Origin: Planctomycetota bacterium
Lineage (GTDB): Bacteria > Planctomycetota > MHYJ01 > JACQXL01
Direction of reading: 5' to 3'
NCBI GenBank assembly: GCA_040753835.1
Contig: JBFMDM010000002.1
Location: 1-57,724 of the forward strand
DNA length: 57,724 nt
The notes below the pieces were generated by a model. The model worked only from the letters and a program-made list of their open reading frames with translations. It was not told where the DNA came from and ran no database searches. Position numbers and translations under genes: made by a program. Shown piece by piece: positions 10,908 to 57,724 of this stretch (positions are counted from its first letter, which is position 1; each line of letters opens with the position of its first letter).

Positions 10908-10992
10908 ACCACAGATTCCACAGATTTCGCCGATTAAGGGAACGCAAGCATAATTTTCCCGACTATCGTCGGGAGCGTCAAAGGAGAATATT

Positions 10993-14361: not shown

Positions 14362-14958
14362 TTATCGGGCCGTGCAATATTCAAGCAGGTCGATTCCCAG
14401 ATTTCCAAACAGCCGGTGCAATTCCATCATCGGCAAGCCGAGGACGTTGTAAAACGAGCCCCGGACATTATCAAAGATGAACGAGCCGGGGCCTTCTATG
14501 GAAAACCCGCCGGCCTTGTCAAACGGTCCGGCCACCATTAGGAATTTCCCTGCCATTTTAGGGGTTATCTTTTTCACCCTCACCTTTGAGACAGTCGTTG
14601 CGCACGCGGATTTTTGGGTCAGGGCATCAATCACGCAAAGCCCTGTGTAGACGCGGATGGTTTTGCCCGAGAACTCCCTGAACAGGCGTTTTGCCTCGGC
14701 GCGATTGCGGGGCTTTCCGATGAGGTTCCGGCCGGACAGCACTACCGTATCGGCGCCGATGACGAAGCCGCGCTTAAACCGGCGCGCCACCACCCCGGCC
14801 TTGATACGGGCGTTGAACAAGACGTTATGCGCCGGGCCTTTGCCGGCGTTCATTATCTCCTCTGCATTGCTGGGCGCGACCTTGTGGGCGATGCCGCATT
14901 CCGAGAGTATCTGCGAGCGCCGGGGCGATGCCGAGGCCAGTATAATCAAGGGTTTCAT
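14362..14958 (-). CDS. maf: Maf-family nucleoside triphosphate pyrophosphatase
   Basis: 198 aa. Motifs: LILASASPRRSQIL, GADTVV, GKP. Confidence 0.85.
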   Translation of the reverse strand: MKPLIILASASPRRSQILSECGIAHKVAPSNAEEIMNAGKGPAHNVLFNARIKAGVVARRFKRGFVIGADTVVLSGRNLIGKPRNRAEAKRLFREFSGKTIRVYTGLCVIDALTQKSACATTVSKVRVKKITPKMAGKFLMVAGPFDKAGGFSIEGPGSFIFDNVRGSFYNVLGLPMMELHRLFGNLGIDLLEYCTAR

Positions 14959-24820: not shown

Positions 24821-25660
24821 ATGAAAAATGAGTTAACGCCAGTGACCAAAATAGCCGTCTTCCGCGGCGCGGAAATCCGTAAGACCACCCACAAAAACGA
24901 ATGGTGGTTTGTCGTGGAGGATGTGGTCTTTGCCCTGACGGACTCAGTCAACCCTAAGGACTATATCAATAAGATGCGTGTAAGAGACGAAGAATTAAAC
25001 AAAGGGTATGGATAAATTGTCCATACCCTTCCGGTTAAGACAATGGGCGGAGTTCAGCGGATGAACTGCGCCAATACCGAAGGGATATTCCGTATCATCC
25101 AGTCCATCCCCTCGCCCAAGGCCGAGCCCTTCAAGCGCTGGCTGGCCCGGGTCGGTTACGAACGGGTCAAAGAAATAGAAGACCCGGAACTGGCCACCAA
25201 ACGGACGAGGGCATTATATAAGGCCAAGGGCTATTCGGACGACTGGATAGAAAAACGAATGCGCGGGATTGCCATCAGGGAAGAACTGACCGACCAGTGG
25301 AAAAAGCACGGGGTTGAGGAAGACCGGGAATACGAGATTCTGACCGCGGAAATCTCCAAGGACACTTTCGGTCTTACCCCCAGCCAGTACAAGAAACTAA
25401 AGAACCTCAAACGTGAGAATCTGCGCGACCATATGAACGACCTGGAACTCATCTTCTCTATGTTAGATGAGGCCTCCACCAGCCAAATCACCAAGGTGGA
25501 GCATCCCAAGGACTTTAGCGAAAATAAGGCCGTCTCCCGCCGGGGCGGCAATGTGGCCGGTATCGCCCGTAAGAAACTGGAGCAGGAAACCGGTCGCAAG
25601 GTGGTCAACAAGCAAAACTATTTAGCCCAGCCGCAGAATAAATACTTAAAGAATAAATAA
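24821..25660 (+). pseudogene. BRO-N / prophage-antirepressor-like gene interrupted by one in-frame TAA
   Basis: Track ORFs 24821-25015 and 25043-25660 are in the same frame (25043-24821 = 222). Read through the TAA at 25013-25015, the product is continuous: ...EELNKGYG*IVHTLPVKTMGGVQRMNCANTEGIFRIIQSIPSPKAEPFKRWLARVGYERV.... The N-terminal FRGAEIR...EWWFVVEDV is BRO-N-like. Confidence 0.7.
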
Positions 25661-25711
25661 AGACAGACCAGCAGGCGGGTCGGGCTACCCTGATTCATAA
25701 TCTTCAATCCC

Positions 25712-25757
25712 GCATCTCATATCTCGTATCTGTATCTCGAATCCCATATCTCGCATT
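25712..25757. repeat. heptanucleotide tandem array (NNATCTC x about 6.5)
   Basis: gcatctc atatctc gtatct gtatctc gaatccc atatctc gcat. Intergenic. Confidence 0.8.
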
Positions 25758-26043
25758 TTTCTGGCAAAGGCAAAGGGGATTTGGTAGGATACAGATAAAT
25801 AATTCGGCCCTGTGCCAAAGGCGCTGGTCGCGCGCACCGCCAGGCGCACAGCGGGTACATGCTGTCCCCCGAATTACGAGTGATATATATATTTATTAGC
25901 GGATGAATTGAATATGGCGTCCCCCGAACTTTCCAAGGGTATCCTGGACAAAACCAAATCCGTAACCACAGATAAACGCAGATAAACACTGATTTCCCAA
26001 GCACTTATAACCCTTAACTGTGCACTTTTGACTTAAATTTTGG

Positions 26044-26101
26044 TCCCGCAGTTCTGCGGGATCTAAAAGCCAGTAACGACCAAAGGTCTAACTGGCTCTA
26101 A
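26044..26101. repeat. TAAC-hairpin element, copy A
   Basis: TCCCGCAG-ttc-CTGCGGGA followed by AAGCCAG-TAAC-GACC-aaa-GGTC-TAA-CTGGCTCT. Confidence 0.8.
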
Positions 26102-26103
26102 GA

Positions 26104-26418
26104 GGGGATAGGGTGGGGTCTATGGGGGGTGGGGGTGGGGTCTGGTATGCCTGACCGACCAAACGGGTGGTGGTTTAAGGCAAATCTGATGGACATAACC
26201 GCCCAGACCAGTAGACCTGTCTGATAGGACTGGCGGGCCTCTCCGACCAGATGGACAGGGGATGGCGACCTTACCGGAAGGGGCTGGCGCCGAGACCGGG
26301 GGACTTACCCGACCACACGGGTGGGTCTGTCCGACCATACGAGTGGGAGCTTACGCCGAGATTAGGAGGGATGACCGACCATATCGGTAGGTGGTGCGGC
26401 CGATACCCGGAGGAATTT
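26104..26418 (+). repeat. G-rich degenerate array of about 22-bp iteron-like repeats
   Basis: Eight contiguous units start at 26243, 26265, 26288, 26308, 26331, 26354, 26375 and 26397 (consensus CCGACCAnAnnGGnnGGG + 4-6 nt). Outliers sit at 26155 and 26199. GGGTGGGGTCT occurs twice (26111, 26133) within long G-runs. The 20-24-bp period is not a multiple of 3. Confidence 0.75.
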
Positions 26419-26475
26419 GCTATTATACAAGCAAATAGTCCCGACACAAAATTTTGCAGATTTTTAGTATTTTTC

Positions 26476-26504
26476 TTGACAATATCATCACATTTATATA
26501 GCAT
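26476..26504 (+). promoter_or_regulatory. candidate promoter for the 26549 gene
   Basis: TTGACA (26476-26481), 17-nt spacer, TAGCAT (26499-26504). Preceded by a T-rich UP-like tract and located 45 nt upstream of the ATG in a very AT-rich stretch. Confidence 0.4.
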
Positions 26505-26548
26505 AATATTAACAGATATAACTAAATAGATATATTAAGGAGTAAAAG

Positions 26549-27067
26549 ATGCAAGAACAAAAGGAATACCTTACGTCAGAAGAAGTTATGAGTTTGCTAA
26601 ATATTGCTCGTCCAACACTCTATTTGTGGGTAAAATTAGGTAAGCTGACTCCAATAAAAATGGAAGGTAAATTGCTTAGATTTAGTAGGCTTGAAATTGA
26701 GCGACTTCTACCACCGAATAAAACAGGTGTTTATGCTTGGGTTTCCACAAGTAACGATAAGGCAAAAGCGATTGCTGAAATACAAAACCATTTAAATGGC
26801 CAACCAGAATATAAGTTCATTTATTTAGATGAATCACGACCCGACCGTTTTAAGGCACGTATATTAATAAAAGATACCAAATCGGGGAAGTGGATAGATC
26901 CTGGTACGGCCCCGGGAGGAATGACACTAAGGGGGGTAACCGACTTACACAAAAAAGGTGGATATATTTTTCTGGGAACACAGGAGCCATGGCAAATAGA
27001 AAGCATCAGAATAGAAAATGACGGGTGCTCAAATTATATAGCTATTTGGGTCGATAAAGTGAAATAA
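26549..27067 (+). CDS. excisionase/MerR-type HTH DNA-binding protein with an uncharacterised C-terminal domain
   Basis: 172 aa. N-terminal YLTSEEVMSLLNIARPTLYLWVKLGKLTPIKMEGKLLRFSRLEIERLL is the Xis-family helix-turn-helix pattern. The remaining 110 aa are unassigned. Confidence 0.6.
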   Translation: MQEQKEYLTSEEVMSLLNIARPTLYLWVKLGKLTPIKMEGKLLRFSRLEIERLLPPNKTGVYAWVSTSNDKAKAIAEIQNHLNGQPEYKFIYLDESRPDRFKARILIKDTKSGKWIDPGTAPGGMTLRGVTDLHKKGGYIFLGTQEPWQIESIRIENDGCSNYIAIWVDKVK

Positions 27068-27077
27068 TTCTCTGGTT

Positions 27078-28745
27078 ATGAAACAATATCAACAATATAT
27101 TAACTACGGACAAAAGGCGGAAAAAAGGGGAGACGATAAATTAGCGATAAAAGAGTATACCAAAGCTATTAAATTAGACCCCTATAACAGAGTCGCATAT
27201 ATTTATCGAGCACTTCTTTATTCCGCTGGTGATAAACTCAAGAAAGCCGAAGATGATTATACTAAATTAATAGATTTAGAATCTGATAAAGTAAATGCGT
27301 ACGCACAAAGAGCAAATTTTTATCATACATGGATGCGGGATTATAAAAAGGCAGAAATAGATTATACCAGGGCAATAAAAATTACTCCGGGTTCAAGCGC
27401 ACCCTATGTAGAACGAGGGTATTTCTATCTTTCTATCAAGAAGTATGATTTAGCATTAGAGGATTTTGTAACATTTTTTACCAGTACAGATATAAAAGTC
27501 GCTGGTATTTATTATTGTCGTGATTGGTTAGGATTTGACATCTGGATGCCTCCCTATGAGGAAAAGGCAGTATGGCTTAAAAAACTGCTGAAACGCCTTT
27601 CTGGTAAAAGAATAGACAGCCAGAAATTCGTTACATTTTTTTATTATATAACTAAAGCATTAGCATCGTATGAAAGGGAAAATTGGACTGAATCATTAAA
27701 GTTATTGCGTCAGGCAAAACAAGTAGGACAATATTTTAAGGAATTAAAAAGTCTTATTTCCATGTTGAGTGATTTGTCGGAAATTATTTTATTAGATAAG
27801 CGCTTAAAAGAAGCATTGTTTTTGCCGCCTTCGTCCCAGATATTAATAAAACAAATCTCCCCACTTTATAGCAGGTTTAAAAATATTGCAAGGAGAATGT
27901 CCACGCTAAAAAATACTGATGCTGTGGTTCTAATATGGGGATTTGATTTGAATAATTTGATTAACGTTAAGCGAAATATTTGTGCTGTGATTTTGGGGAA
28001 ACTAAATAAACTATGTGAAAAAGAACTATTTTCCTTATTATCGCATGGATCTGCTACATTCAATTTTTCTCGACAACGAGAATGTCTGCTTGAATATATT
28101 TTAGATGAAAGCGAAAAAGAGTGCCGGATGTGGAATTTAAGCAAAGCGTTAGATGGTATTAAGGCGGTAAGACGATTCATTAAATCTTCAGATTTAAGTA
28201 CGCTTAAAAATGTAATGGGGTTAGATGGCGTTCTTACCCTGCAAGCAATTTCTCAAATAAGCGATAAAATTTCTGAAAGAGTAATTAAAAATCTCAAAAA
28301 GGGAAATTTGTGTAGCCAGACAATTGAACAGCCCCAGAAAATATTACTGCCTAAAAATAAAGATTTTCCTGTGCCTCCTGGTACCCAGTGGTCGGATTTA
28401 TTCTTGGCAGAAATAAACGGCGAAATGATAAGAGCCAGGATAGACAATGTCGTCCGACGCTATAATTTTATAGAGTTCGGTTGTAAAGACGGACGCACCT
28501 CTAAACTTACACCTGATAAACAATGGCGAACATTGATTGACTTAATAAAACATAATGGCGAAATATCATACAAAACTCCATTAGGTAAACCGCCTACAAA
28601 AATGACCATTTCCAGAGTTGCTAAGATACTCAAAACTATCTTCCCTATTTCAGGCAGTCCATTTTACCCCTATAAGGACTTCAAATCCTATAAAGCGAAA
28701 TTTAATATAGAAGATATTTCGGTAGTTAACCCCGACCTTACATAG
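27078..28745 (+). CDS. TPR-repeat protein, C-terminal two-thirds unknown
   Basis: 555 aa, AT-rich codons. The N-terminal 130 aa carry 3-4 TPR-like units (AIKEYTKAIKLDPYNRVAYIYRALLY..., AEIDYTRAIKITPGSSAPYVERGYFY...). Confidence 0.6.
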   Translation: MKQYQQYINYGQKAEKRGDDKLAIKEYTKAIKLDPYNRVAYIYRALLYSAGDKLKKAEDDYTKLIDLESDKVNAYAQRANFYHTWMRDYKKAEIDYTRAIKITPGSSAPYVERGYFYLSIKKYDLALEDFVTFFTSTDIKVAGIYYCRDWLGFDIWMPPYEEKAVWLKKLLKRLSGKRIDSQKFVTFFYYITKALASYERENWTESLKLLRQAKQVGQYFKELKSLISMLSDLSEIILLDKRLKEALFLPPSSQILIKQISPLYSRFKNIARRMSTLKNTDAVVLIWGFDLNNLINVKRNICAVILGKLNKLCEKELFSLLSHGSATFNFSRQRECLLEYILDESEKECRMWNLSKALDGIKAVRRFIKSSDLSTLKNVMGLDGVLTLQAISQISDKISERVIKNLKKGNLCSQTIEQPQKILLPKNKDFPVPPGTQWSDLFLAEINGEMIRARIDNVVRRYNFIEFGCKDGRTSKLTPDKQWRTLIDLIKHNGEISYKTPLGKPPTKMTISRVAKILKTIFPISGSPFYPYKDFKSYKAKFNIEDISVVNPDLT

Positions 28746-28914
28746 TAACAAATCTGGTGCCTAAAATCAGAAATTCTTAAAAATTACCTCTTCTTCTATT
28801 CTGTTCTAACCGTCTGATTCTCAGGCTGTTATAGCATTTCTTCCCGGGAATTTGCGTCTCAAATCAATTATTACTAGTAACTTGTTACAATCTTATTAGT
28901 AGAAGGACGCAAAT

Positions 28915-29009
28915 GAGAGTCAGCCCTTCTAACCCGCTATTCGGCGGGTCTAAAACATTGTAACATCCCGATTTCAATAACACTCATCGGGATTAACTGT
29001 CTCTCAAGA
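28915..29009. repeat. compound TAAC-hairpin element (copy G) forming the leader of the 29021 gene
   Basis: Outer stem GAGAGTCAG / CTGTCTCTC encloses TAAC-CCGC-tattcg-GCGG-gtc-TAA and TAAC-ATCCCGAT-13 nt-ATCGGGAT-TAA. It is followed by AAGAAAGGAtaatctATG. Confidence 0.7.
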
Positions 29010-29020
29010 AAGGATAATCT

Positions 29021-29608
29021 ATGCATAAACCAAATAAATGCCGGTATTGTTCGGTCAAGGAGTTGCAGAAGGAGAAAAATAAGCACGAGAAAAAGGCGTT
29101 TGAGAACGTCTTTCCTGACATCTTGCCTGCCTTGAAAGGTCTTGCTTGTAAATACTGTAATGATTTATTGCCTGTTTACGACCCTTTCAGCGAAGTAGTA
29201 TACGCCGCCTATCAGGCATTGAAAATGGGATACCATCAAAAGAAAGATATTATCCGTATCGCAGCAAATCACCTCATCCGTTTGGCAAGAAAAGAATCTA
29301 ATCATAGAGAATTTCTAATAGAACATTCTGAGGAAATCGCCGAGAAGTTCCATCATCCGTATTCTTATCCGCCTGACTATCGCCTGCAGGATAAATATCA
29401 GTGGAATTATCAGGGGATTCAGATGCTGGATGAAGCGGTGCAGGATAAGGTCTTGAGTCAGATAGAAGTTGAGGTGCTGGCTGAATATGTCTGCTACGAG
29501 CGGACTTTTAAGTGGATTGCCAAGGGACAGAACCTTACAATACAAAAAGTTGCTCAACTTTATGAAACCGCTTTAGAAAAACTAAAAAGGAGTATATCCG
29601 ATGAATGA
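29021..29608 (+). CDS. small sigma-70-family-like protein (region 2/region 4-like) with N-terminal Cys pairs
   Basis: 195 aa. CRYC...CKYC at the N-terminus. The C-terminal LSQIEVEVLAEYVCYERTFKWIAKGQNLTIQKVAQLYETALEKLKR resembles a sigma region-4 HTH. A YvrJ-like gene follows, an arrangement known for YvrI-type sigma factors in Firmicutes. Confidence 0.5.
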   Translation: MHKPNKCRYCSVKELQKEKNKHEKKAFENVFPDILPALKGLACKYCNDLLPVYDPFSEVVYAAYQALKMGYHQKKDIIRIAANHLIRLARKESNHREFLIEHSEEIAEKFHHPYSYPPDYRLQDKYQWNYQGIQMLDEAVQDKVLSQIEVEVLAEYVCYERTFKWIAKGQNLTIQKVAQLYETALEKLKRSISDE

Positions 29609-29741
29609 AATTATTACCGTAATTGAACGATTGGGCTTCCCGATTTTCCTGTCTCTGTATCTGGTCGTCAGGCAGGACGGCCTTTTAAGGGCGATTCTGT
29701 CCGAACTACGTAAGATGAACGGATACAAAAAAGGAAGATAA
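29601..29741 (+). CDS. YvrJ-like small membrane protein
   Basis: 46-aa ORF not in the track. AAGGAG lies 8 nt upstream, and the ATG overlaps the upstream stop (ATGAATGA). MNEIITVIERLGFPIFLSLYLVVRQDGLLRAILSELRKM matches my recollection of the YvrJ family (..GFPI.V..YLL.R.E..L). Confidence 0.5.
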   Translation: MNEIITVIERLGFPIFLSLYLVVRQDGLLRAILSELRKMNGYKKGR

Positions 29742-29745
29742 ACCT

Positions 29746-29871
29746 ATGTTCAAACTAATGTCAGGTTTCTGGAAACGGGTCATTAAGACGATAATTGAAA
29801 TCGTCTTGGATCTGATTCAGAAGAAAAGGCAACAGTAATCCCTAACGGGATAAGAGCCAGTAACAACTAAA
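29746..29871 (+). CDS. hypothetical 41-aa peptide
   Basis: ATG preceded by AAGGAAG. MFKLMSGFWKRVIKTIIEIVLDLIQEEKATVIPNGIRASNN. The 3-prime end runs into repeat copy B, so the extent is uncertain. Confidence 0.25.
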
Positions 29872-29888
29872 GTTTAACTGGCTCTAAA
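29839..29888. repeat. TAAC-hairpin element, copy B
   Basis: ATCCC-taac-GGGAT followed by AAGAGCCAG-TAAC-AAC-taaa-GTT-TAA-CTGGCTCT. Confidence 0.8.
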
Positions 29889-30101
29889 CACACCCCTGCC
29901 ACTCTTGATAGAGGGGACTTTGGGTGAAAATTACCAGTCCGGTTGGGGCTATCTCAGGTATCAGTGGTCCCCGCCTCTATCTTTTTGATGGGTGCGGGGC
30001 TTGAATAGCCACGGCAAGATACGATAGCCCCGCCGGCTGTTTACAGCCACAGATTATACAGATTCTTTGTGTCCTTTGTGGCGAGAAGAAAGGAAACGAA
30101 A

Positions 30102-30893
30102 ATGATACACACTAAGATACTGGTTCCGGTTGCGCCGTTCGTGCCGCCGGACCCGGATATGTCCACCAAACGGGTGGAAACACTCAAAAACGATGCGGAG
30201 ATTATCAATAACCGCCGCAAGGTCCGGCTTCCCAATGCCGATACCTTTGCCCAGATATATTCTCCGGCATCGGATAAGTTCAAGCAACGGGTGAACTTCC
30301 CGACCTCAACCCAGGGCGACCGCAACGCGGCCGACATCTTCGCGCTCCAGCGCTCCAAGATGACCCGCGCTTACAATAAGTACAACGACGGCTTAGACCA
30401 CGCCTTTGAAGAGGTTGACGGCGTCTATGCCAAGCGGTTCAAGGATAAGGTTGACGCCTCGCAAAGCAACTGGGATGAGGAAGCGGCCAGGGGAACCCTG
30501 AGATTCACCGGCTCGCGTGCCAGAGGCAGACAGGTCGCCTCAATTATGGGCTACTGGCTGACCGCAGACCAGCAGGCAACACAGCGGCTTCCCGAAGGCA
30601 CGGTCGTCTTTTCCGGCAATCCCTACGACATTGCCTGGGATGACTTGAAGGCGACCTTAAGAACCTCTATCACCCAGATTCTGGTCCAGACCGGGATGAT
30701 TTTGGTGGAATCGGGGTTTGACCCGAATATGTTCACCAGGCATAACGGCCGGATCAAGAATATGCTTGAGAAACTCTCAGACCCCTTAAAGGCGTCCGAC
30801 TGGGTGGCCAGCCGCCTGACGGATAAGTCCTACTGCGTCTGGTTCGTGGAGGACGGACAACTGAAACTGGAAACCCAAATCTACACGGCGTAA
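30102..30893 (+). CDS. hypothetical protein
   Basis: 263 aa from the ATG at 30102, preceded by GAAAGGAAACGAAA (the track start at 30069 lacks an RBS). No motif recognised. Confidence 0.6.
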   Translation: MIHTKILVPVAPFVPPDPDMSTKRVETLKNDAEIINNRRKVRLPNADTFAQIYSPASDKFKQRVNFPTSTQGDRNAADIFALQRSKMTRAYNKYNDGLDHAFEEVDGVYAKRFKDKVDASQSNWDEEAARGTLRFTGSRARGRQVASIMGYWLTADQQATQRLPEGTVVFSGNPYDIAWDDLKATLRTSITQILVQTGMILVESGFDPNMFTRHNGRIKNMLEKLSDPLKASDWVASRLTDKSYCVWFVEDGQLKLETQIYTA

Positions 30894-30994
30894 GCCACAG
30901 ATTACACAGATTGTATTCTGTAAAATTACCACGAGGACACAGAGAACGCAAAAGTCCTTTTGGGCTTTGTGCGCTTTGTGTCCTTTGTGGTGAA

Positions 30995-31128
30995 ACCCGC
31001 CAGAGGCGGGTCTAACTGGCTGTCCCTGCCCCTACGGGATAACTCACTGTAACATCCTGTCGGATTAACAGTGAGTAAACGGGACTCCTGCGGTCGTAAC
31101 GACCAATGGTTTAACAACCAGTAAGAAA
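30995..31128. repeat. compound hairpin cluster (copy F) forming the leader of the 31141 gene
   Basis: ACCCGCC-aga-GGCGGGT, CTAACTGGCT..., CTCACTG-TAAC-ATCC-tgtc-GGAT-TAA-CAGTGAG, GGTCG-TAA-CGACC, ...AACCAGTAAG. It is followed by AAGAAAGGAttaatttatATG. Confidence 0.7.
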
Positions 31129-31140
31129 GGATTAATTTAT

Positions 31141-32094
31141 ATGGCAAGAATACTTTATGACCGGATTAACGAGATAAAGAACAAGCACTTAAGCCCGCAA
31201 TCAGTCACGGGAGATAAGATAGCCAGCGATGCTATTGAAGAGAAACATATTAAGGACGGCGTGGTGACCAGACGTAAGATAGCCGATGGCGTGGTTGGTA
31301 CTAATGAACTGGTGGACGGTTCGGTTACCACGGCCAAGATAGCCAGCAAGGCGGTAACTACCGACAAACTGCAATCAGCCAGTGTAACTAATGAAAAGAT
31401 TGCGGATGGCGCAATTACCTCAGGCAAGATTGTGGCCGGGGCAATCACCACGGAAAAAATTGCCAACGGCGCGATCACCCGGGAAAAGGTGGCCGACCAG
31501 AGCGTGAGGAGCGAGGATTTGGTGGACGGCGCAGTGACCAGTGCGAAACTGGCGAGTAACTCGGTAACCGCGGCAAAGATTGCGGCCAATGCAGTCGGCT
31601 CATCCGAGATTGCGGCCAGTGCGGTTAATACCAGCGAACTGACAAACGGGGCAGTTACTACGGAAAAGATTGCCAACGGCGCGGTAACGCAGGAGAAATT
31701 GGCCGCCGGAATAGCCGCGGGCGAACGGCACATCATCGGCACCACACAGGGCGAACAGTCATTAGAAGGGCTTTATTTGCCCGGACAGTCGTTCCCGATT
31801 CCTTACACCGCGGTTGACCTGTCCCAATGGATTCCGGCCGGGGCTAAGTGGGCCATTGTCCAGCTCGGGATGTTTACCGAGTCAATGAGTCCAAACGTGG
31901 TGGCCGAGATGCGCGTGCGCCGGGATGAGATTCAGCGCGAGGCAATCTGCATCTCCAACGGCTCAACGGGCAAGACCGTCTGGAACGCCGGCCTCGTGCC
32001 ACTGACAAGTGGACGAACGGTGGAATATCAGTTGACGATGACCGGCAGTATAACGGTTACTATCTTTATTACAATTGTGGGATATGTAATGTAG
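31141..32094 (+). CDS. tail-fibre-like protein with 16 tandem 11-residue repeats and a globular C-terminal domain
   Basis: 317 aa. Residues about 18-193 follow an 11-aa period (VTTAKIASKAV TTDKLQSASVT NEKIADGAITS GKIVAGAITTE KIANGAITREK ...). The last 120 aa or so are non-repetitive. Confidence 0.7.
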   Translation: MARILYDRINEIKNKHLSPQSVTGDKIASDAIEEKHIKDGVVTRRKIADGVVGTNELVDGSVTTAKIASKAVTTDKLQSASVTNEKIADGAITSGKIVAGAITTEKIANGAITREKVADQSVRSEDLVDGAVTSAKLASNSVTAAKIAANAVGSSEIAASAVNTSELTNGAVTTEKIANGAVTQEKLAAGIAAGERHIIGTTQGEQSLEGLYLPGQSFPIPYTAVDLSQWIPAGAKWAIVQLGMFTESMSPNVVAEMRVRRDEIQREAICISNGSTGKTVWNAGLVPLTSGRTVEYQLTMTGSITVTIFITIVGYVM

Positions 32095-34577: not shown

Positions 34578-34610
34578 AGATAAATATTCTATTCCCTCGT
34601 CTATCGGGAT

Positions 34611-34648
34611 AAGAGCCGGTAACATCCCTGCGGGATTAACCGGCTCTA
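34611..34648. repeat. TAAC-hairpin element, copy C (rplP-rpmC spacer)
   Basis: AAGAGCCGG-TAAC-ATCCC-tgc-GGGAT-TAA-CCGGCTCTA. The last 3 nt are the complement of the rplP TAG stop. Confidence 0.8.
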
Positions 34649-35056
34649 ATGTATACGTTTCACCAGTTTTGTATTGAACGGCATCTTATGGGCCACGCTG
34701 TTAAAGACCTTGCGGGCGATGTCCTCGGTTACGCCGTCTATCTCAAACAGGACAGTGCCTTTTTTCACCTCGGCTGCATAATATTCCGGCTCGCCCTTGC
34801 CGGTGCCCATCCTGGTTTCAGCCGGCTTGGCTGTAATCGGTTTGTGCGGGAATACCCTGAGCCAGAATTTTCCGGTCGGCGGCATCTGATGCGTAATCGC
34901 CACCCGGCCGGCTTCTATCTGCTGGGCTGAAAGCCAGCCGCGCTCCAGGCACATCAATCCGTATTCGCCAAAAGCGACATAATTTCCCCTTTGGGCGTCG
35001 CCTTTCATCTTGCCTCTTTGCCACTTACGGTATTTTATCCTTTTGGGCATTAACAT
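34646..35056 (-). CDS. rplP: 50S ribosomal protein L16
   Basis: MLMPKRIKYRKWQRGKMKG..., 136 aa. Confidence 0.95.
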   Translation of the reverse strand: MLMPKRIKYRKWQRGKMKGDAQRGNYVAFGEYGLMCLERGWLSAQQIEAGRVAITHQMPPTGKFWLRVFPHKPITAKPAETRMGTGKGEPEYYAAEVKKGTVLFEIDGVTEDIARKVFNSVAHKMPFNTKLVKRIH

Positions 35057-39126: not shown

Positions 39127-39161
39127 TGTAGCACACAGTAGGCGTTTACCGCCCGCTCCTT

Positions 39162-39216
39162 AGAACCTGTTAGACCTTTGGTCTTACAGGTTCTTAAATC
39201 CCGCCTTCGGCGGGAT
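39162..39216 (-). repeat. TAAC-type hairpin element (rpsJ-rplC spacer), consensus orientation on the minus strand
   Basis: The minus strand reads ATCCCGCC-gaag-GGCGGGAT-tta-AGAACCTG-TAA-GACC-aaa-GGTC-TAA-CAGGTTCT. The architecture matches copies A-E, with compensatory changes in the outer stem. Confidence 0.75.
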
Positions 39217-41699: not shown

Positions 41700-41766
41700 G
41701 TCATTCCCGCGAAAGCGGGAATCCATTAATTTAAGGTCGTAGATTCCGCATCAAGTGCGGAATGAC
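41700..41766. repeat. pair of GTCATTCC-type palindromes in the transketolase subunit spacer
   Basis: GTCATTCCCGC-gaaa-GCGGGAAT (41700-41722) and ATTCCGCA-tcaag-TGCGGAATGAC (41743-41766). Related GTCATTCC/GGAATGAC arms occur at 32279-32390. Confidence 0.7.
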
Positions 41767-42601: not shown

Positions 42602-42859
42602 TTAAAACCCTTTATCTAATAATTTTAGTTTCGTTTCCCGCGGCCATCCTTGGATTTCCATCTCCCGTTTCCGGGCCGAGGATTTATCAGGATATTTTTC
42701 CCGATAGACCAATCTAACCGGTACTCGCGTCCGGGTATATTTGGCGCCCTCGCCTGAATTATGTTCTTTAATCCTTTCCGGGATATCGTTGGTTATGCCT
42801 GTATAAAGCGAATCATCCCTGCAACGGAGGATATAGACGAACCAGGGACGATTGTTCAT
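42602..42859 (-). CDS. GIY-YIG nuclease-family protein
   Basis: WFVYILRCRDDSLYTGITNDIPERIKEHN...R..E...K. The start is set at Met17 of the track ORF (MNNRPW...), because the first 16 codons lie in repeat copy D. Confidence 0.8.
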   Translation of the reverse strand: MNNRPWFVYILRCRDDSLYTGITNDIPERIKEHNSGEGAKYTRTRVPVRLVYREKYPDKSSARKREMEIQGWPRETKLKLLDKGF

Positions 42860-42868
42860 TGTTATAGG

Positions 42869-42926
42869 AGTCCCGCCTTCGGCGGGATTAAGAGCCAGTA
42901 ACGACATTTGGTCTAACTGGCTCTAA
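42869..42926. repeat. TAAC-hairpin element, copy D (abuts the tRNA-Phe 3-prime end)
   Basis: GTCCCGCC-ttcg-GGCGGGAT-t-AAGAGCCAG-TAAC-GAC-attt-GGTC-TAA-CTGGCTCTAA. Confidence 0.8.
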
Positions 42927-47940: not shown

Positions 47941-48070
47941 TTTAGGATGGCCGTTAACCTCGCAGGTCAGATAAAACCTGACCGAAAGGTTTACGGCTGG
48001 TTATCCCGCTCCAACACACTGTATGTCCCGAACGCTTTCGGGATTTTATGGGTAAAGCGGGATAACTGGT
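47941..48070. repeat. highly structured intergenic spacer inside the efflux operon
   Basis: GCCGT-TAA-CCT...AGG-TTTA-CGGC encloses GGTCAG-ataaaac-CTGACC. Then GTTATCCCGCT...AGCGGGATAAC (11-bp arms) encloses TCCCGAA-cgc-TTTCGGGA. Confidence 0.65.
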
Positions 48071-49399
48071 TTAACGCCGGCGGAATCCGGACCCTGACGG
48101 CATAAACGGGTTGGCGGTCGCCGCCTCCTGCTTGCTTATCGTGCCGGTCACTACTTCCTGGCCTTCCTTGATATCGCCGTTTAATATCTCGGTAAAAGAG
48201 CCGTCCGTAATGCCGGTTCTGACGCTGACCGGCTTAAGTTTTCCGTTATTTAATATCCAGACCTGTTTCCGGGACGGCGTCTCTGTTTTATCCTTCCCGT
48301 TCGGCTTTGCCTCAGGATAAGAGCCAGTAACGACCTGCGGTCTAACTGGCTCTAATGGTTTCCGGCCCGTTCCCGGCTGGTGTGCTGGAGCGCCTGATAC
48401 GGCTTCCCGTTCCCGGCCTTCGGGCGCCTCCGCGGCCTTGTATTTATCAGCATCCTGGGGCACAAAGCGTAGGGCCGCATTGGGCACCCGCAGGACATCT
48501 TCGCGGCGCTCTATCTCAAACGAGAGATTGGCCGTCATCCCGGGCAGGAGTTTTTCCTCCGGATTGTCCGCATAGATAATCACCGTATAGGTCACCACGT
48601 TCTGGACCGTTGTGGGCGATAGCCGGATTTGCGCCACCCGGCCGCTGAACTTCTTTTCCGGATGGGCGTCCACCGTGAAATTGACCATCTGGTCCATCAG
48701 AATCTTGCCGATGTCCGCCTCGGCCACGCTGGCCTGTATCTGGATTTTGTTGAGGTTGTTGGCAATTATGAACAGGGTCGGGGCCGAGAGCGAGGCGGCC
48801 ACGGTCTGGCCCTCGTCCACGTTGCGCGAGACCACAATGCCATCTATCGGCGATTTGATGGTGGTATAGGCCAGGTTTATCTCCGACATCTTCAGGGACG
48901 CCTGGGACTGCTCGATACCGGCCTTGGCCAGTTTCAACTGGGCAATCAGCGAATCAAATGACGCCACCGCCGTGTCCAATTCTGATTGCGATATGAGGTC
49001 TTTCTTAGCCAGTTCCTGGGCCCGCTTGAATTCGTTCTCGGCCTGGGTGAGATTCGCTTCCACCCGCTCGGCATCGGCGATGCTGCGCGCCAGACTGGCC
49101 CGGTCTTGGGCGACCCGCGCCTCGTAGGACGCCGGGTCTATCTGGGCGATGATGTCGCCTTCCTTGACCCGAGAATTGAAATCCACGTATAACTTCTTGA
49201 CAGGCCCGGTTACCTGCGTGCCGACCTGGACCTGGAGCAGGGGCTGGACCACGCCGCTGGAAGTAACGGTCTTGATAACCGTGCCCTTGTCCGCCTTGGC
49301 GGTCTTATAGGATACCGCGCCGTTGGCGCCTCCGCCTAGGGTAAAATACAGGACCGCGGCCGCGGCCAGGACCGCAATCACGACGATAATCTTTTTCAT
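48071..49399 (-). CDS. efflux periplasmic adaptor protein (HlyD/MacA family)
   Basis: 442 aa. N-terminal TM, a coiled-coil hairpin (ARVAQDRASLARSIADAERVEANLTQAENEFKRAQEL...), beta-barrel segments, and a low-complexity linker containing repeat copy E. Confidence 0.88.
   Translation of the reverse strand: MKKIIVVIAVLAAAAVLYFTLGGGANGAVSYKTAKADKGTVIKTVTSSGVVQPLLQVQVGTQVTGPVKKLYVDFNSRVKEGDIIAQIDPASYEARVAQDRASLARSIADAERVEANLTQAENEFKRAQELAKKDLISQSELDTAVASFDSLIAQLKLAKAGIEQSQASLKMSEINLAYTTIKSPIDGIVVSRNVDEGQTVAASLSAPTLFIIANNLNKIQIQASVAEADIGKILMDQMVNFTVDAHPEKKFSGRVAQIRLSPTTVQNVVTYTVIIYADNPEEKLLPGMTANLSFEIERREDVLRVPNAALRFVPQDADKYKAAEAPEGREREAVSGAPAHQPGTGRKPLEPVRPQVVTGSYPEAKPNGKDKTETPSRKQVWILNNGKLKPVSVRTGITDGSFTEILNGDIKEGQEVVTGTISKQEAATANPFMPSGSGFRRR
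48315..48355. repeat. TAAC-hairpin element, copy E, inside the MacA-like coding sequence
   Basis: GGAT-AAGAGCCAG-TAAC-GACC-tgc-GGTC-TAA-CTGGCTCTAA. It is translated on the minus strand as ...LEPVRPQVVTGSYP.... Confidence 0.8.
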
Positions 49400-51098: not shown

Positions 51099-52985
51099 AT
51101 GAATAACTTGATTCCCTACGCCAGGGGCGCAAAACCGGTTGACCTCCTGCTCAAGAACTGCCGCATGGTCAATGTCCTCACCGCAGAGATATACAAGACC
51201 TCTGTGGCTATTGCAGAAGGATTCGTGGTCGGATTCGGCACCTATAAATCCGAAAAGGTCATAGACCTTAAGGGCGCGTATCTGGCGCCCGGATTTATAG
51301 AGGGCCATATCCATATAGAAAGCAGTATGCTCTCGCCTGCGGAATTCTCCAATACCGTTCTGCCCCGCGGCACGACTACTGTGGTCTGCGACCCGCACGA
51401 GATTGCCAATGTCCTGGGTCTTAAAGGCATTAAATATTTCCTGGATGCCAACCTGCCAGAACGCCTCGCAATGGGGCAGGCGGGCCGCTACCCCGGGCTG
51501 AGCATCTACACAATGCTGCCTTCCTGTGTTCCGGCAACTGATTTAGAAACCTCAGGCGCCCGGCTCACAGCCCGCGACCTGCTTAAATTAGCCCGCCACC
51601 CGTATGTGCTCGGACTGGCCGAGATGATGAATTTCCCGGGCGTGCTTTACGAGAATAAAGACGTCCTGGCTAAACTAAAAATATTTGATATGACAGCGGA
51701 CGGCTTGCCGTTCCGTAGTCCCACTGGGACGAAGGATGGCCTGCCGTTCCGTAGTCCTACTGGGACGAAGGACGGCTTGCCGTTCCGTAGTCCTACTGGG
51801 ACGAAGGACGGCCTGCCGTTCCGTAGTCCTACTGGGACGAAGGACGGGCATGCGCCGGGATTGAGAGGAAAAGATTTATCCGCCTATATCTCTGCCGGCA
51901 TCCGCTCGGACCACGAGTCGTTCACGGTTGAAGAGGCATTGGAAAAACTCCGGAGCGGGATGCACCTGATGCTCCGCGAGGGCACAGCCGCCCGGAATCT
52001 GGAGACGCTCATCAAGGCGGTCACGCCCGGCAACAGCCGCAGGTGTATGCTGGTCAGCGACGACCGGCATCCGGACGACCTGCTCAAGAACGGGCATCTG
52101 GACGCCGCCTTAAGAAAGGCGGTGCGGCTGGGATTGGACCCGATAACCGCGCTCCAGATGGTTACGATTAATCCGGCAGAATATTTCGGGCTGAAGCGCT
52201 TAGGCGCCATTGCGCCCGGATTTGCTGCCGACCTGGTTGTCCTGCAAGACCTCAGGGACTTTAAGATAAAGATAGTGTTTAAGAAGGGAACGAGCATAAG
52301 GCATAGAGCAAAGAGTTTAGGTGGTCATTCTAATAACGCTCTACGCTTTACGCTCTACGCTTCGCTTCATCTGCCTCTGCTGACAGAGAGTGATTTCCAT
52401 ATCCGTTCATCAGGCCATAGAATGATAAAGGTCATAGAACTTATACCGAACCAAATAGTAACCAAAAAGACGATTCTGCCGGCGCTGATAAAAGACGGCC
52501 GGGCCGTGGCCGACACGAAACGCGACATCCTGAAGATTGCGGTCATAGACAGACACAGCGGCAAGAAGCACATCGGACTTGGATTCGTAAAGGGATTCGG
52601 CTTAAAGAGAGGCGCGATTGCATCCACCGTGGCGCACGACTCGCACAACCTGATTGTGGTCGGGACAAGCGATTGGGATATGCATTTTGCAGCAAAGGTC
52701 ATCCGGTATCTCAGGGGCGGCCAGATTGTGGTTTCATACGGCAGGATTATGGCATCTTTGCCTTTGCCTAATGCCGGGATAATGTCCGACCGGAGCGCGC
52801 AAGAGGTGGCAGAAGCGGTCCGCAAACTAAATCTTGAGGCGCGCAAACTGGGGTGCAGGGTATCCGAACCCTTTATGCCGCTCTCATTCCTGGCCCTGCC
52901 GGTTATCCCGGACTTGAAGATTACGGACAAGGGTCTGGTGGATGTGACTCAATTCCGGGTCGTGGGATTGTTTGAGCGTTCATAG
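51099..52985 (+). CDS. ade: adenine deaminase
   Basis: 628 aa. Motifs: PGFIEGHIHIESSML, VVCDPHEIANV, DGHAPGLRGKDLSAYISAGIRSDHE, LVSDDRHPDDL. Carries in-frame tandem-repeat insertions. Confidence 0.9.
   Translation: MNNLIPYARGAKPVDLLLKNCRMVNVLTAEIYKTSVAIAEGFVVGFGTYKSEKVIDLKGAYLAPGFIEGHIHIESSMLSPAEFSNTVLPRGTTTVVCDPHEIANVLGLKGIKYFLDANLPERLAMGQAGRYPGLSIYTMLPSCVPATDLETSGARLTARDLLKLARHPYVLGLAEMMNFPGVLYENKDVLAKLKIFDMTADGLPFRSPTGTKDGLPFRSPTGTKDGLPFRSPTGTKDGLPFRSPTGTKDGHAPGLRGKDLSAYISAGIRSDHESFTVEEALEKLRSGMHLMLREGTAARNLETLIKAVTPGNSRRCMLVSDDRHPDDLLKNGHLDAALRKAVRLGLDPITALQMVTINPAEYFGLKRLGAIAPGFAADLVVLQDLRDFKIKIVFKKGTSIRHRAKSLGGHSNNALRFTLYASLHLPLLTESDFHIRSSGHRMIKVIELIPNQIVTKKTILPALIKDGRAVADTKRDILKIAVIDRHSGKKHIGLGFVKGFGLKRGAIASTVAHDSHNLIVVGTSDWDMHFAAKVIRYLRGGQIVVSYGRIMASLPLPNAGIMSDRSAQEVAEAVRKLNLEARKLGCRVSEPFMPLSFLALPVIPDLKITDKGLVDVTQFRVVGLFERS
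51699..51842 (+). repeat. 4 x 36-bp perfect-phase tandem repeat inside ade
   Basis: The unit GACGGC(T/C)TGCCGTTCCGTAGTCC(C/T)ACTGGGACGAAG occurs at 51699, 51735, 51771 and 51807. It encodes (DGLPFRSPTGTK)x4, immediately followed by the native DGHAPG. Confidence 0.95.
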
Positions 52986-53129
52986 AAAAGGGGGGCTGGG
53001 AAATCGGGGTAAGCCGACCGCAACATCGGGGGCAAAAACCTTGCCTGAAGAAAAAGGAATTTGTAAAATCAAATCATTAAAGGCGCCCTGTCCCGATAGG
53101 AATCGGGACTGGTCGGCAGCATTCAGCCG

Positions 53130-53499: not shown

Positions 53500-54096
53500 A
53501 TGCTCAAGAAACTAATTTTCTGGAAGATAACAACCATTTTTTTGCTTATTAGCACGCTAATTATGGGACTAATTATTGTCTGGCCAGAACCAGATGGATA
53601 TTCGCGAGTTCCCCGTATCATATCTATAGTAAGACTTATGGGGCTCAATCAAGAATCAATTAAGAAGGAAGTGCTAATTGATAAAAATAATAATGGTGTT
53701 GGAGAATATTCAGACAACATTAATTATATGCTTGAAACTAAATACTTAACTAAGGATATTAATAATAGCATTGATTATTCTCATTATAATTATATGGTAA
53801 AAGTAGGTGAAAGTGTTGAGGAAAGAGAAAAATCTTTTGAGATATACGCCATTCCTAAGGTGCCTTATAATTACTGTGATAAATACGGAGATGGAATAGT
53901 TGCTTGTGCTATTGACGAAACTGGGGTTATGAAATTTTCGGTAATGGAAAATGCAGTAAATTGGGACCCACCAATTGGTATAATGAAGAAATGGCAACCC
54001 TTAAGTAGTGACTGCTGGGGAGAACAATTAAAAAAACATTTTAGCATATCATTAACAGAAAAAATATTAAATAAAATATTTCATGGTCATTATTAA
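53500..54096 (+). CDS. membrane-anchored hypothetical protein
   Basis: 198 aa, AT-rich. GGAGAAGGA RBS. N-terminal TM helix WKITTIFLLISTLIMGLIIVW. The C-terminal FEIYAIPKV...GDGIVACAIDETGVM is loosely pseudopilin-like. Confidence 0.6.
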   Translation: MLKKLIFWKITTIFLLISTLIMGLIIVWPEPDGYSRVPRIISIVRLMGLNQESIKKEVLIDKNNNGVGEYSDNINYMLETKYLTKDINNSIDYSHYNYMVKVGESVEEREKSFEIYAIPKVPYNYCDKYGDGIVACAIDETGVMKFSVMENAVNWDPPIGIMKKWQPLSSDCWGEQLKKHFSISLTEKILNKIFHGHY

Positions 54097-54103
54097 AAGG
54101 GGG

Positions 54104-54520
54104 TTCGGGGGACAGCCCCGCTATCCAGCGGGACTCCGCGGCGGCTCCGCATACCGGATTTGAATAAGTAATTATTGCGCTATCGGGTTTTGGAGATTAT
54201 AATCAATTCTGATGATAGCCCTTAAGCCAATTAAGAAACACAATTCACCGACTACTGTCTACAGTCCACTGCCTGCTTCCCACTATATCCAGGACGGCTT
54301 GGGAAGTATCCGCAATCTCGTGTCATCTGCGGAGGCAGTGGTTAACTCGTATGATTATTACGGTTTTGGCGAATCCCTATCAGCCAGTGAGCAAGTGAGC
54401 AATCGTTACAGGTTTACCGGCCGGGAGTGGGACAACGAATCCAGCACCTACCGCTACCGGGCCAGGGAGTATAATCCGGCCAGCGGAAGATTTACGGCCA
54501 GAGACCCGATTGGGTATTTA
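54104..54520 (+). repeat. RHS cassette junction repeat, copy 1
   Basis: About 417 bp nearly identical and collinear (constant offset of 1625 nt) with 55729-56145. It covers 108 nt upstream of the ATG plus the first 100 or so codons. Confidence 0.9.
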
Positions 54521-55282: not shown

Positions 55283-55723
55283 ATGGCTGGTAAGTTTTAT
55301 ATTGAGTTTAGCTTTAGAGGTGACGATTTTTCTCCTGAAGAAATAACAACATCTCTCGGTATTACCCCATCAAGGACATGGAAAAAAGGAGACAGGAGAA
55401 CCCCTAAAAATGCGAATACAAAAGTAGTATGCAAAAATAATGGATGGGTTATTAGAACCGAGGAAAAAACGGACGAAAACAATAACATGGAAGAACAAAT
55501 AGAACTTTTACTTGCGAGGTTAACACCACTTGCGTATAAAATAAAAGAAATTTGTTCTAATAATAAAAAAATAGAGGCCATATTTTGCTGTGTTTTATAT
55601 GCTATAGAAGCCAATCCGCAAGTTTATTTTAAATCTATGATAGTTAGGCAAATATCAGATATGGGTGCGTCTATTTGGTTTGATGTATATAATTTCGGGG
55701 ACGACATACCAAACTCAAAATAA
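55283..55723 (+). CDS. candidate immunity protein (DUF4279-like)
   Basis: 146 aa, 15 nt downstream of toxin 1. FYIEFSFRGDDFSPEEITTSLGITPSRTWKKGD resembles my recollection of the DUF4279 N-terminal signature. Confidence 0.55.
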   Translation: MAGKFYIEFSFRGDDFSPEEITTSLGITPSRTWKKGDRRTPKNANTKVVCKNNGWVIRTEEKTDENNNMEEQIELLLARLTPLAYKIKEICSNNKKIEAIFCCVLYAIEANPQVYFKSMIVRQISDMGASIWFDVYNFGDDIPNSK

Positions 55724-55728
55724 CGGAA

Positions 55729-56145
55729 TTCGGGGGACAGCCCCGCTATCCAGCGGGACTCCGCGGCGGCTCCGCATACCGGATTTGAATAAGTAATTAT
55801 TGCGCTATCGGGTTTTGGAGATTATAATCAATTCTGATGATAGCCCTTAAGCCAATTAAGAAACACAATTTACCGACTGCTGTCTATAGTCCACTGCCTG
55901 CTTCCCACTACATCCAGGACGGCTTGGGAAGTATCCGTAATCTCGTGTCATCTGCGCAATCTGTGGTTAACTCGTATGATTATTGCGGTTTTGGCGAATC
56001 CCTATCAGCCAGTGAGCAAGTAAGCAATCGTTACAGGTTTACCGGCCGGGAGTGGGACAACGAATCCAGCACCTACCACTACCGGGCCAGGCAGTATAAT
56101 CCGGCCAGCGGAAGATTTACGGCCAGAGACCCGATTGGGTATTTA
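55729..56145 (+). repeat. RHS cassette junction repeat, copy 2
   Basis: See copy 1. Also contains the segment whose reverse complement is found at 1-120. Confidence 0.9.
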
Positions 56146-57592: not shown

Positions 57593-57636
57593 AGTCGGTC
57601 CGGTGACACCCACCTCGCCTCAGTGGTGAATTGGAA

Positions 57637-57724
57637 TTCGGGGGACAGCCCCGCTATCCAGCGGGACTCCGCGGCGGCTCCGCATACTGGATTCAAATAA
57701 GTAATTCTTGCTTCACTGGATTAT
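57637..57724 (+). repeat. RHS cassette junction repeat, copy 3 (truncated by window end)
   Basis: TTCGGGGGACAGCCCCGCTATCCAGCGGGACTCCGCGGCGGCTCCGCATA... is identical to the heads of copies 1 and 2, then diverges moderately. This implies a further cassette beyond the window. Confidence 0.85.

Follow-up and report, generated by a model that had tools for sequence, protein, structure and literature searches.

A high-copy family of bipartite hairpin repeats in groundwater Planctomycetota, with one copy in frame in a MacA-like adaptor gene

A stretch of 57,724 nucleotides from a Planctomycetota bacterium (contig JBFMDM010000002.1), here called the window, carries a family of short hairpins, one of which lies within a gene for a MacA-like periplasmic adaptor. 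In this study, we found that the family is real and that its copies share a two-part architecture in which pairing is kept while the sequence changes. The family is probably a lineage-specific, high-copy, bipartite palindromic repeat, similar to repetitive extragenic palindromes (REPs), which is dispersed in a clade of uncultivated groundwater Planctomycetota and is recognised as a hairpin. The copy in the adaptor gene is an event of a known kind, a selfish palindrome in a gene as in REPs and Rickettsia palindromic elements (RPEs), in a new, previously undescribed family. The gene and its copy are as follows:

48071..49399, minus strand: MacA-like periplasmic adaptor open reading frame (ORF), 442 codons, hosting the insertion at residues 349-368
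48318..48355, plus strand: hairpin B within the ORF, antisense to the gene, TA-AGAGCCAG-TAA-C-GACC-tgc-GGTC-TAA-CTGGCTCT-AA; 62.7 bits in the covariance model described below
48296..48317, plus strand: A-like module CCCGTTCGGCTTTGCCTCAGGA ahead of B, like the CCCTTCGCTTCGCTCAGGA type of other copies; read as PEAKPNG

The initial annotation had quoted the hairpin at 48315-48355 (AGAGCCAG-TAAC-GACC-tgc-GGTC-TAA-CTGGCTCT) as the repeat unit. Its letters are exactly as stated and the hairpin is real, but the unit is larger, with an A module (TCCC...GGGA) and TA preceding it. Comparison of the window copies with related loci gave the B unit the grammar TA-[A N6 G]-TAA-[variable apex]-NAA-[C N6 T]-AA. 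Its foot is a helix of 8 bp (A N6 G / C N6 T), the 5' arm is followed by TAA and mostly by an unpaired C, the apex is hypervariable (7-59 nt), and the B length is 33-52 nt. The A module, a TCCC...GGGA stem with a variable top plus TA, lies upstream of B in 84% of copies. Three classes of apex were found: a short hairpin of the GACC-loop-GGTC type; a 12-13 nt apex, N-TC-RY-TNY-RY-TC-N, the commonest in the family, whose 2-bp helix covaries and whose TC/TC mismatches are conserved; and long hairpins of about 30 nt. The loop TAAC/TAA had been described as invariant. This holds within the window, but family-wide the 3' loop is NAA (TAA 146, AAA 24, CAA 20, GAA 5) and the unpaired C on the 5' side is variable.

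The ends of the element read TA-A...T-AA on one strand and TT-A...T-TA on the other, and no GTAG or CGTC tetranucleotide was found at any fixed position of the B copies. There is no T-run 3' of B; AA is followed by a purine-rich stretch (about 85% A/G at +3 to +8), and an intrinsic terminator, in which a GC-rich hairpin is followed by a T/U run, was rejected on this ground. TAA or TAG occurs in five of the six frames of the A+B element, and the predicted RNA folds of the copies were very stable (z-scores -3 to -7). The likeness among copies is bounded by the outer base of A on one side and by the AA after B on the other. Because the similarity stops at these two points, the copies are not the ends of a larger element, which also answers the concern, raised in the initial annotation, that they might be parts of a larger known insertion sequence (IS) or transposable element of the miniature inverted-repeat type (MITE). 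In Rfam, only tRNA-Phe passed in the window and no family matched the hairpin; an E-value search of 25900-31300, with five copies inside, gave no match on any copy. The motif strings retrieved only unrelated primers from the searchable literature.

Loci were collected from a genome scan of 596 Gb (35 loci), a metagenome scan (at least 120 loci) and syntenic loci. A strict pattern of the element gave 61 matches in 272 kb, compared with about 0.05 in shuffles, and at least 195 matches in 1.06 Mb of loci, compared with 0-1 in shuffles. At least 174-175 unique copies were present in about 1 Mb of related Planctomycetota metagenome-assembled genomes (MAGs) and groundwater contigs. The foot occurred in at least 30 sequence variants, all paired. 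Among 46 distinct copies, seven of its eight pairs varied on both sides and 98.9% of cells were paired; none of 500 shuffles attained the observed covariation scores, and slid controls showed 19-45% pairing. A model-based alignment of 53 distinct copies concurred, the paired cells in the outer helix amounting to 98.9-99.5% over both alignments. As the strict pattern itself demanded pairing, we repeated the test with copies chosen by the A module and 5' arm only, and almost all genuine copies had a perfect 3' partner, compared with 3% of random 8-mers. Wobble (G-U) pairs were very rare (about 1% of the outer helix). At the orthologous tRNA-Phe copy, the window and the related locus L036 differ by a compensatory replacement of A-T with T-A in the foot (CCAG/CTGG to CCTG/CAGG). 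The compensatory substitutions claimed for the outer stem were borne out by these data. They had been taken as a signature of selection on structure; the covariation holds, but it does not imply an RNA function, since a DNA hairpin recognised by an enzyme leaves the same signature. Strand asymmetry of G-T versus A-C mismatches, as a test for RNA-level selection, involved too few non-Watson-Crick pairs to tell. These results confirm that the hairpin family is real and far beyond chance.

In the genome scan, 33 of the 35 loci came from six Planctomycetota MAGs; the remaining two, in Staphylococcus simiae and a Patescibacteria MAG, are perfect hairpins unrelated to the family. In the metagenome scan, among the matches listed, family copies came mostly from groundwater (e.g. 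Hainich H41) and sediment sets. The genes adjoining copies are ordinary housekeeping genes. Occupancy differed between related genomes: the tRNA-Phe copy is common to the window and L036, the copy between the S10 and L3 genes is present in the window only, the same site in L036 being without it, and L036 alone has a copy in the 5' untranslated region of its TolC-like gene and another after the gene downstream of MacB (14561-14598). Between tRNA genes that are 97% identical, the spacer is B'-A-B in L010 and unrelated sequence in L088. One locus (L001) contains a tandem array of three units with a 15-nt spacer. Nesting was seen at 28915-29009 and 31015-31123 of the window, where an A hairpin or a whole A+B lies just after the 5' arm of a B.

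A covariance model was built from 21 short copies. On the window it found seven canonical copies at 45-63 bits and nothing else, to which the two nested compound copies are added. The opposite strand of these copies scored at most 15 bits, which makes the polarity of the element clear. Every copy that had been listed in the initial annotation exists, the one at 39162-39195 being on the opposite strand from the others. Besides the MacA copy, they are:

26044..26101 (B 26064-26101), plus strand: A hairpin TCCCGCAGTTCTGCGGGA and B (AAAGCCAG...CTGGCTCT), intergenic; 54.9 bits
28915..29009, plus strand: compound copy with B arms AGAGTCAG...CTGTCTCT, in which the 5' arm is followed by an inserted A-type hairpin and the apex is A-like
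29838..29887 (B 29851-29887), plus strand: A hairpin ATCCCTAACGGGAT and B, intergenic; 55.7 bits
31015..31123, plus strand: nested compound, outer B ACTGGCTG...CAACCAGT, inner CGACCAATGGTT, enclosing an A hairpin and a complete B
31040-31078, plus strand: the inner complete B of the nested compound, ACTCACTG; 48.4 bits
34592..34649 (B 34610-34649), plus strand: A+B copy AGAGCCGG, occupying the L16-L29 intercistronic spacer, antisense to the operon; 54 bits
39160..39215 (B 39160-39196), minus strand: A hairpin TCCCGCCGAAGGCGGGA and B AGAACCTG, sense, between S10 and L3; 44.9 bits
42871..42926 (B 42889-42926), plus strand: A+B copy 2-3 nt from the tRNA-Phe 3' end, B foot towards the tRNA; 56.5 bits
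42927..42999, minus strand: tRNA-Phe gene flanked by the element (Rfam match)

The compound copy at 28915-29009 stops 12 nt short of the start codon at 29021, and the nested compound at 31015-31123 lies immediately 5' of the Shine-Dalgarno (SD) site of ORF 31141. The stop codon TAG of L16 (34646-34648) falls within the spacer element, and the S10-L3 copy is directly 5' of the L3 SD. Between 26 and 32 kb of the window, a copy stands ahead of every small gene. The region 25043-32094 has a lower GC content (46%) and holds Bro-N, HTH_17 (excisionase-like) and TPR ORFs together with ORFs without a Pfam match, each preceded by a hairpin copy; it may be an integrated mobile region. Inside ORF 31141-32094 there are 30-nt periodic repeats. 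Solo A-type hairpins (TCCCG...CGGGA) with no B partner were seen in intergenic spacers, among them the MacA-MacB spacer, at 10957-10974, 41705-41720, 48026-48043 and 53091-53108; shuffled controls had 4-17 such hairpins, and the 18 in the window lie at the top of this range.

The host ORF of the MacA copy matched E. coli MacA structures (PDB 5NIK and 9QGY) with E-values of about 1e-35 (7e-35 to 1e-36) and contains the Pfam adaptor domains of a MacA/HlyD-type adaptor. The gene belongs to a TolC-like/MacA/MacB operon that is syntenic with the related MAG L036, in which the neighbours of MacA are OEP, ABC_tran and MacB_PCD/FtsX. As originally proposed, the copy lies in the ORF and is translated as LEPVRPQVVTGSY: on the minus strand of 48071-49399, B reads LEPVRPQVVTGSY(P), residues 349-361, and the A module reads PEAKPNG. 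The proposal of an in-frame insertion was also upheld. The three closest MacA orthologues (79-83% identity) lack about 14 residues precisely at PQVVTGSYPEAKPNG, and the copy contributes about 14-20 residues that are missing from them; the distance between the conserved flanks is 81 nt in the window, compared with 39 nt in L038 and 64 nt in L036. E. coli MacA has just a few residues at this position. The linker around the insertion is hypervariable in length and sequence, and because its DNA is too diverged, nucleotide-exact boundaries of the insertion cannot be set. No exact empty site was found for the MacA copy, whose protein cluster has a single member.

In an AlphaFold2 prediction made with the orthologue alignment, residues 321-374 had a predicted local distance difference test score (pLDDT) below 50 and no secondary structure. 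Strands 289-306 and 377-384 flank this disordered segment, which contains the whole insertion (residues 349-368). Stops occur in five of the six frames of the 60-nt A+B segment, and the sole open frame is the MacA reading frame. The copy adds LEPVRPQVVTGSYPEAKPNG to a disordered linker of about 50 residues situated between the adaptor's last beta segments. Intragenic copies would persist only if they land in the one open frame and in a tolerant region of the protein. The MacA copy would be a survivor of this kind and is most likely neutral for the pump.

At least five further copies among the 174-175 unique ones are in frame inside real genes, and the intragenic share is about 4%. Pfam domains were found on both sides or upstream of the in-frame copy in UvrA (L011), GcvPB (L039), a GltD-like oxidoreductase (L133), a GT2 glycosyltransferase (L142), a TPR membrane protein and a FecR protein, and copies near protein ends were in frame in L017 and L018. 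Antisense copies in genes read LEPV...TGSY, and sense copies with a 14-nt apex read RASN...LTGSN. Two related observations were made. At 8583-8640 of L036, the call of the TolC-like gene begins inside an antisense A+B copy (MSPSSYRLLERSDLQPVIPMTIGAT...); the true start is probably the ATG after the element, an example of repeats misleading start calls. In the window, four tandem 36-nt units GGACGGCTTGCCGTTCCGTAGTCCCACTGGGACGAA at 51698-51841 (plus strand) are read in frame as (DGLPFRSPTGTK)x4 in ORF 51099-52985, which encodes an adenine deaminase, at a point between the amidohydrolase segments. The unit contains GTAG and then the palindrome TCCCACTGGGA, and it may be a second, GTAG-tagged REP-like repeat in a gene.

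We also examined the positions of copies relative to genes. An SD and start codon lay 9-24 nt 3' of B (mode 15-17) in 54 of the 174 unique copies, compared with 4% of random positions; only 12 copies had a start codon on the opposite strand past their A side. The B foot is 2-6 nt from SD sites. At 13 element-tRNA junctions the gaps were 2-5 nt, with the B foot towards the tRNA every time. On the 5' side of a tRNA the copies were in sense orientation, on the 3' side they were antisense, and there were several tRNAs with copies on both sides. The idea that the leader and trailer copies of a tRNA pair as a long-range 'processing stem' was rejected, as their feet and apices differ. At antisense copies the upstream ORF often terminates at the TAG within TTAGAGCC, as L16 does in the window. 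In a crude census of flanking genes, co-directional pairs held 16 sense compared with 10 antisense copies.

The gain and loss of copies, their nesting, arrays, intragenic positions and both orientations, the rare wobble and the occurrence in one clade suggest a REP-like dispersed DNA element. The unit would have spread as DNA and would be recognised in its folded hairpin form by a putative mobilising enzyme. Recognition of the folded hairpin would explain why the pairing is kept while the sequence changes, and the rare wobble pairs and both orientations fit a DNA constraint acting on both strands. Most other copies would be transcribed in leaders, trailers or intercistronic spacers, where they probably act secondarily as stable stem-loops marking or protecting RNA ends, by analogy with E. 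coli REPs. Several results weigh against this interpretation. The positional precision at SD sites and tRNAs exceeds what is predicted for a passive selfish element, and it calls for either target specificity, with the foot end joining next to DNA that is purine-rich or structured, or a use of the transcribed hairpins by the host. The tRNA-Phe copy is retained in two genomes with just 79% identity between their MacA proteins, and the conserved unpaired bases (TAA loops; TC...TC apex mismatches) would also fit an RNA-protein site. Flank pairs gave no exact empty site, the entire spacer being replaced in the best pair (L010/L088), and neither nucleotide-exact boundaries nor a duplicated target could be seen in any filled/empty pair. 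No mobilising enzyme was linked to the element in related loci. The REP-associated tyrosine transposase (RAYT) was considered as such an enzyme. Y1_Tnp (IS200-like/RAYT-like) ORFs are present in four related loci (L135, Pfam E 8e-16; L143; fragments in L035 and L072). These ORFs are not adjacent to hairpins, however, and L135 has inverted repeats of its own.

The L135 ORF (146-817), on a contig of the same clade, is an IS200-like Y1 transposase (RAYT/TIRYT-like; HVHLI ... YIELNPIRAGLV), and its flanks hold an own 18-nt inverted repeat GGGGACACAATACTAGTT and GGGGAATCT tandem repeats.

A cis-acting structured RNA is a possible, if doubtful, alternative. The A+B pair would be a gene-boundary module, read through its UAA loops by a protein or nuclease, which governs the adjacent mRNA or tRNA at the level of processing, stability or translation, and the intragenic copies would be accidents. 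The tight pre-SD placement, the copies on either side of tRNAs at 2-5 nt from the mature ends, the conserved unpaired bases with covarying stems, the conservation of the tRNA-Phe copy with a compensatory change and the stable predicted folds all favour it. However, copies stand in both orientations relative to transcription, and antisense RNA would carry UUA, not UAA, loops; the antisense ones include all copies on the 3' side of tRNAs, the copy in the L16-L29 spacer and most of those in ORFs. In addition, G-U pairs are nearly absent, copies are gained and lost in housekeeping operons among related genomes, nesting and tandem arrays occur, and no Rfam family matches. We ranked the DNA element first and a primary RNA function second, and the two are not mutually exclusive. 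It is unlikely that a dedicated structure-specific enzyme system writes gene boundaries by acting on the A+B hairpins, either as a REPtron analogue with GIY-YIG or with the hairpins as an RNA punctuation code read by a processing nuclease. In the first version a small free-standing GIY-YIG nuclease, not RAYT, would mobilise or maintain hairpins at tRNA, tmRNA and operon junctions. The window has an 85-aa free-standing GIY-YIG ORF (42602-42859, minus strand; Pfam E 4e-20), which begins 10 nt past the A' hairpin downstream of tRNA-Phe and is absent at the orthologous site of L036. The related loci contain four GIY-YIG ORFs, each no more than 20 nt away from an element, and small genes of this type adjoin the hairpins in every instance observed in the clade; in L049 the gene is bracketed on both sides by inverted units. 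Close homologues with the same layout occur in L171, L163-165 and L172, the last after a tmRNA-like 3' end, and the ORFs of L046, L049, L025, L171, L163 and L172 adjoin hairpin elements or tRNA/tmRNA genes. Distant homologues (L166, L173) are in ordinary contexts and do not share the layout, and in L175 a GIY-YIG ORF lies among tRNAs with hairpins absent. The adjacency may be indirect, via a shared preference for tRNA flanks. GIY-YIG is the best candidate for a linked enzyme, as a lead only.

An IS-derived miniature transposon that targets and duplicates TAA, the TAA loops and flanks being nested target-site duplications, is improbable. TAA does stand at all four junctions (flank, both loops, flank), A-like hairpins form the apex of some B units, and whole A+B units lie in other B units beside the 5' TAA. 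On the other hand, the more than 170 family copies in the loci included no 'empty' B (AGAGCCAGTAACTGGCTCT), the 3' 'TAA' is AAA, CAA or GAA in 25% of copies, the nested insertions lack a clean flanking TAA duplication, and no parent IS was seen. Short-gap matches to the empty B AGAGCCAGTAACTGGCTCT in the metagenome and viral scans were rejected as unrelated AT-rich terminators from other organisms. We consider a site-specific recombination site of the integron attC type, a folded hairpin with an unpaired central spacer that marks gene cassettes, very improbable. The two-tier architecture is alike (conserved foot, internal loop, hypervariable apex of 7-59 nt), and a copy precedes each small gene at 26-32 kb of the window. 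The RYYYAAC/GTTRRRY cores are, however, not inverted, TAA(C) being direct in both arms; the element (33-52 nt) is shorter than attC, which measures 57-141 nt; copies occur in ribosomal-protein operons, beside tRNAs and before housekeeping genes in both orientations; and no integrase was found among the tested window ORFs. That independent ordinary hairpins or terminators became alike by chance or convergence has a negligible probability. Near-identical simple hairpins do exist in unrelated genomes (Staphylococcus simiae, L029; Patescibacteria, L022), in AT-rich contigs and in four viral contigs, but the observed counts are 200- to 1000-fold above shuffles, which refutes this explanation, and the copies share a two-tier grammar, an A module and flanks, with no T-run after the hairpin. 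The L029 and L022 matches from the genome scan were rejected as perfect long hairpins without the grammar of the family; for a 22-base palindromic pattern, chance alone should yield a few such matches in 596 Gb. The four viral matches were rejected as unrelated terminators. L029 contains a tandem array (7350-7720; 66-67 nt period) whose units end in a near-identical B-foot hairpin AGAGCCAGTAACCACTAAAGTGGTAACTGGCTCT; we judged it to be an unrelated staphylococcal repeat that resembles the family by chance.

A further observation was made at the 3' end of the window, where a repeat of 90-300 nt is present at 54087-54396, 55712-56021 and 57620-57711, and inverted at the contig start (1-135). Two of the copies are 96% identical, and the repeat precedes successive ORFs, one with an Ntox33 toxin domain and the next with DUF4279. 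This region looks like a polymorphic-toxin/immunity cassette array.

We compared the family with known systems. REP/BIME elements and REPINs, which are mobilised by RAYT in Proteobacteria, are imperfect palindromes of 30-50 nt, hundreds per genome, mostly between the genes of operons, with conserved unpaired bases, clusters or arrays, occasional intragenic copies and expected transcript stem-loops; the present family resembles them in all these respects. It is also, as REPs are defined, a short (20-40 bp) imperfect palindrome in many copies that are mainly extragenic. It differs by its bipartite A+B unit, two-tier B, TAA/NAA loop and hypervariable apex, by a fixed foot spacing of 2-6 nt, by its groundwater Planctomycetota host, and in that no RAYT gene flanked by elements was found in the loci. 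Because it has no GTAG/CGTC tag, it falls outside the GTAG/CGTC REP superfamilies (Di Nocera 2013; PMC3733652). REPs inside genes have a precedent (PMC3733652), and RPEs are inserted in frame in genes (PMC10969869). Like RPEs, the family comprises palindromes in frame in unrelated housekeeping genes that add a peptide (here LEPV...TGSY(P) or RASN...LTGSN) without destroying the protein. RPEs, in contrast, measure about 100-150 bp and add 30-50 residues, compared with 12-20 here, and belong to another phylum; only about 4% of copies are intragenic in the present family. The two were set apart by description, behaviour alone being shared.

MITEs in operons (Correia/CREE, ERIC, Chunjie) are likewise short, non-autonomous, intergenic in operons, co-transcribed and able to alter mRNA processing. 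MITEs, however, end in inverted repeats matching a parent IS and are accompanied by target-site duplications, and the present element is smaller; no parent IS was seen and no exact empty site was found for it, and its TAA flanks could be duplications. With attC sites it shares a conserved foot, an unpaired central spacer, a variable terminal structure and recognition by shape rather than sequence, but inverted cores, cassette arrays and an integrase were not seen and its size is about half, so that the resemblance is one of shape only. The subterminal hairpins of IS200/IS605 and PATEs are imperfect hairpins recognised as single-stranded DNA, with a fixed end abutting the target, as the B foot here faces the gene end. 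They differ in that no TnpA/TnpB gene was linked to the present element and no conserved cleavage tetranucleotide was identified in it.

This work adds a well-defined family to the few bacterial palindromic repeats that colonise both spacers and protein-coding genes, in a phylum and habitat, the uncultivated groundwater Planctomycetota, without an earlier described repeat of this sort. In practice, such copies cause spurious start and stop calls, assembly breaks and peptides of 12-20 residues (LEPV...TGSY) in housekeeping proteins, which is relevant to annotation and phylogenomic pipelines. The grammar of the element provides a clean system for asking how such elements choose their targets, and how they may later be used by the host for the formation of RNA ends.

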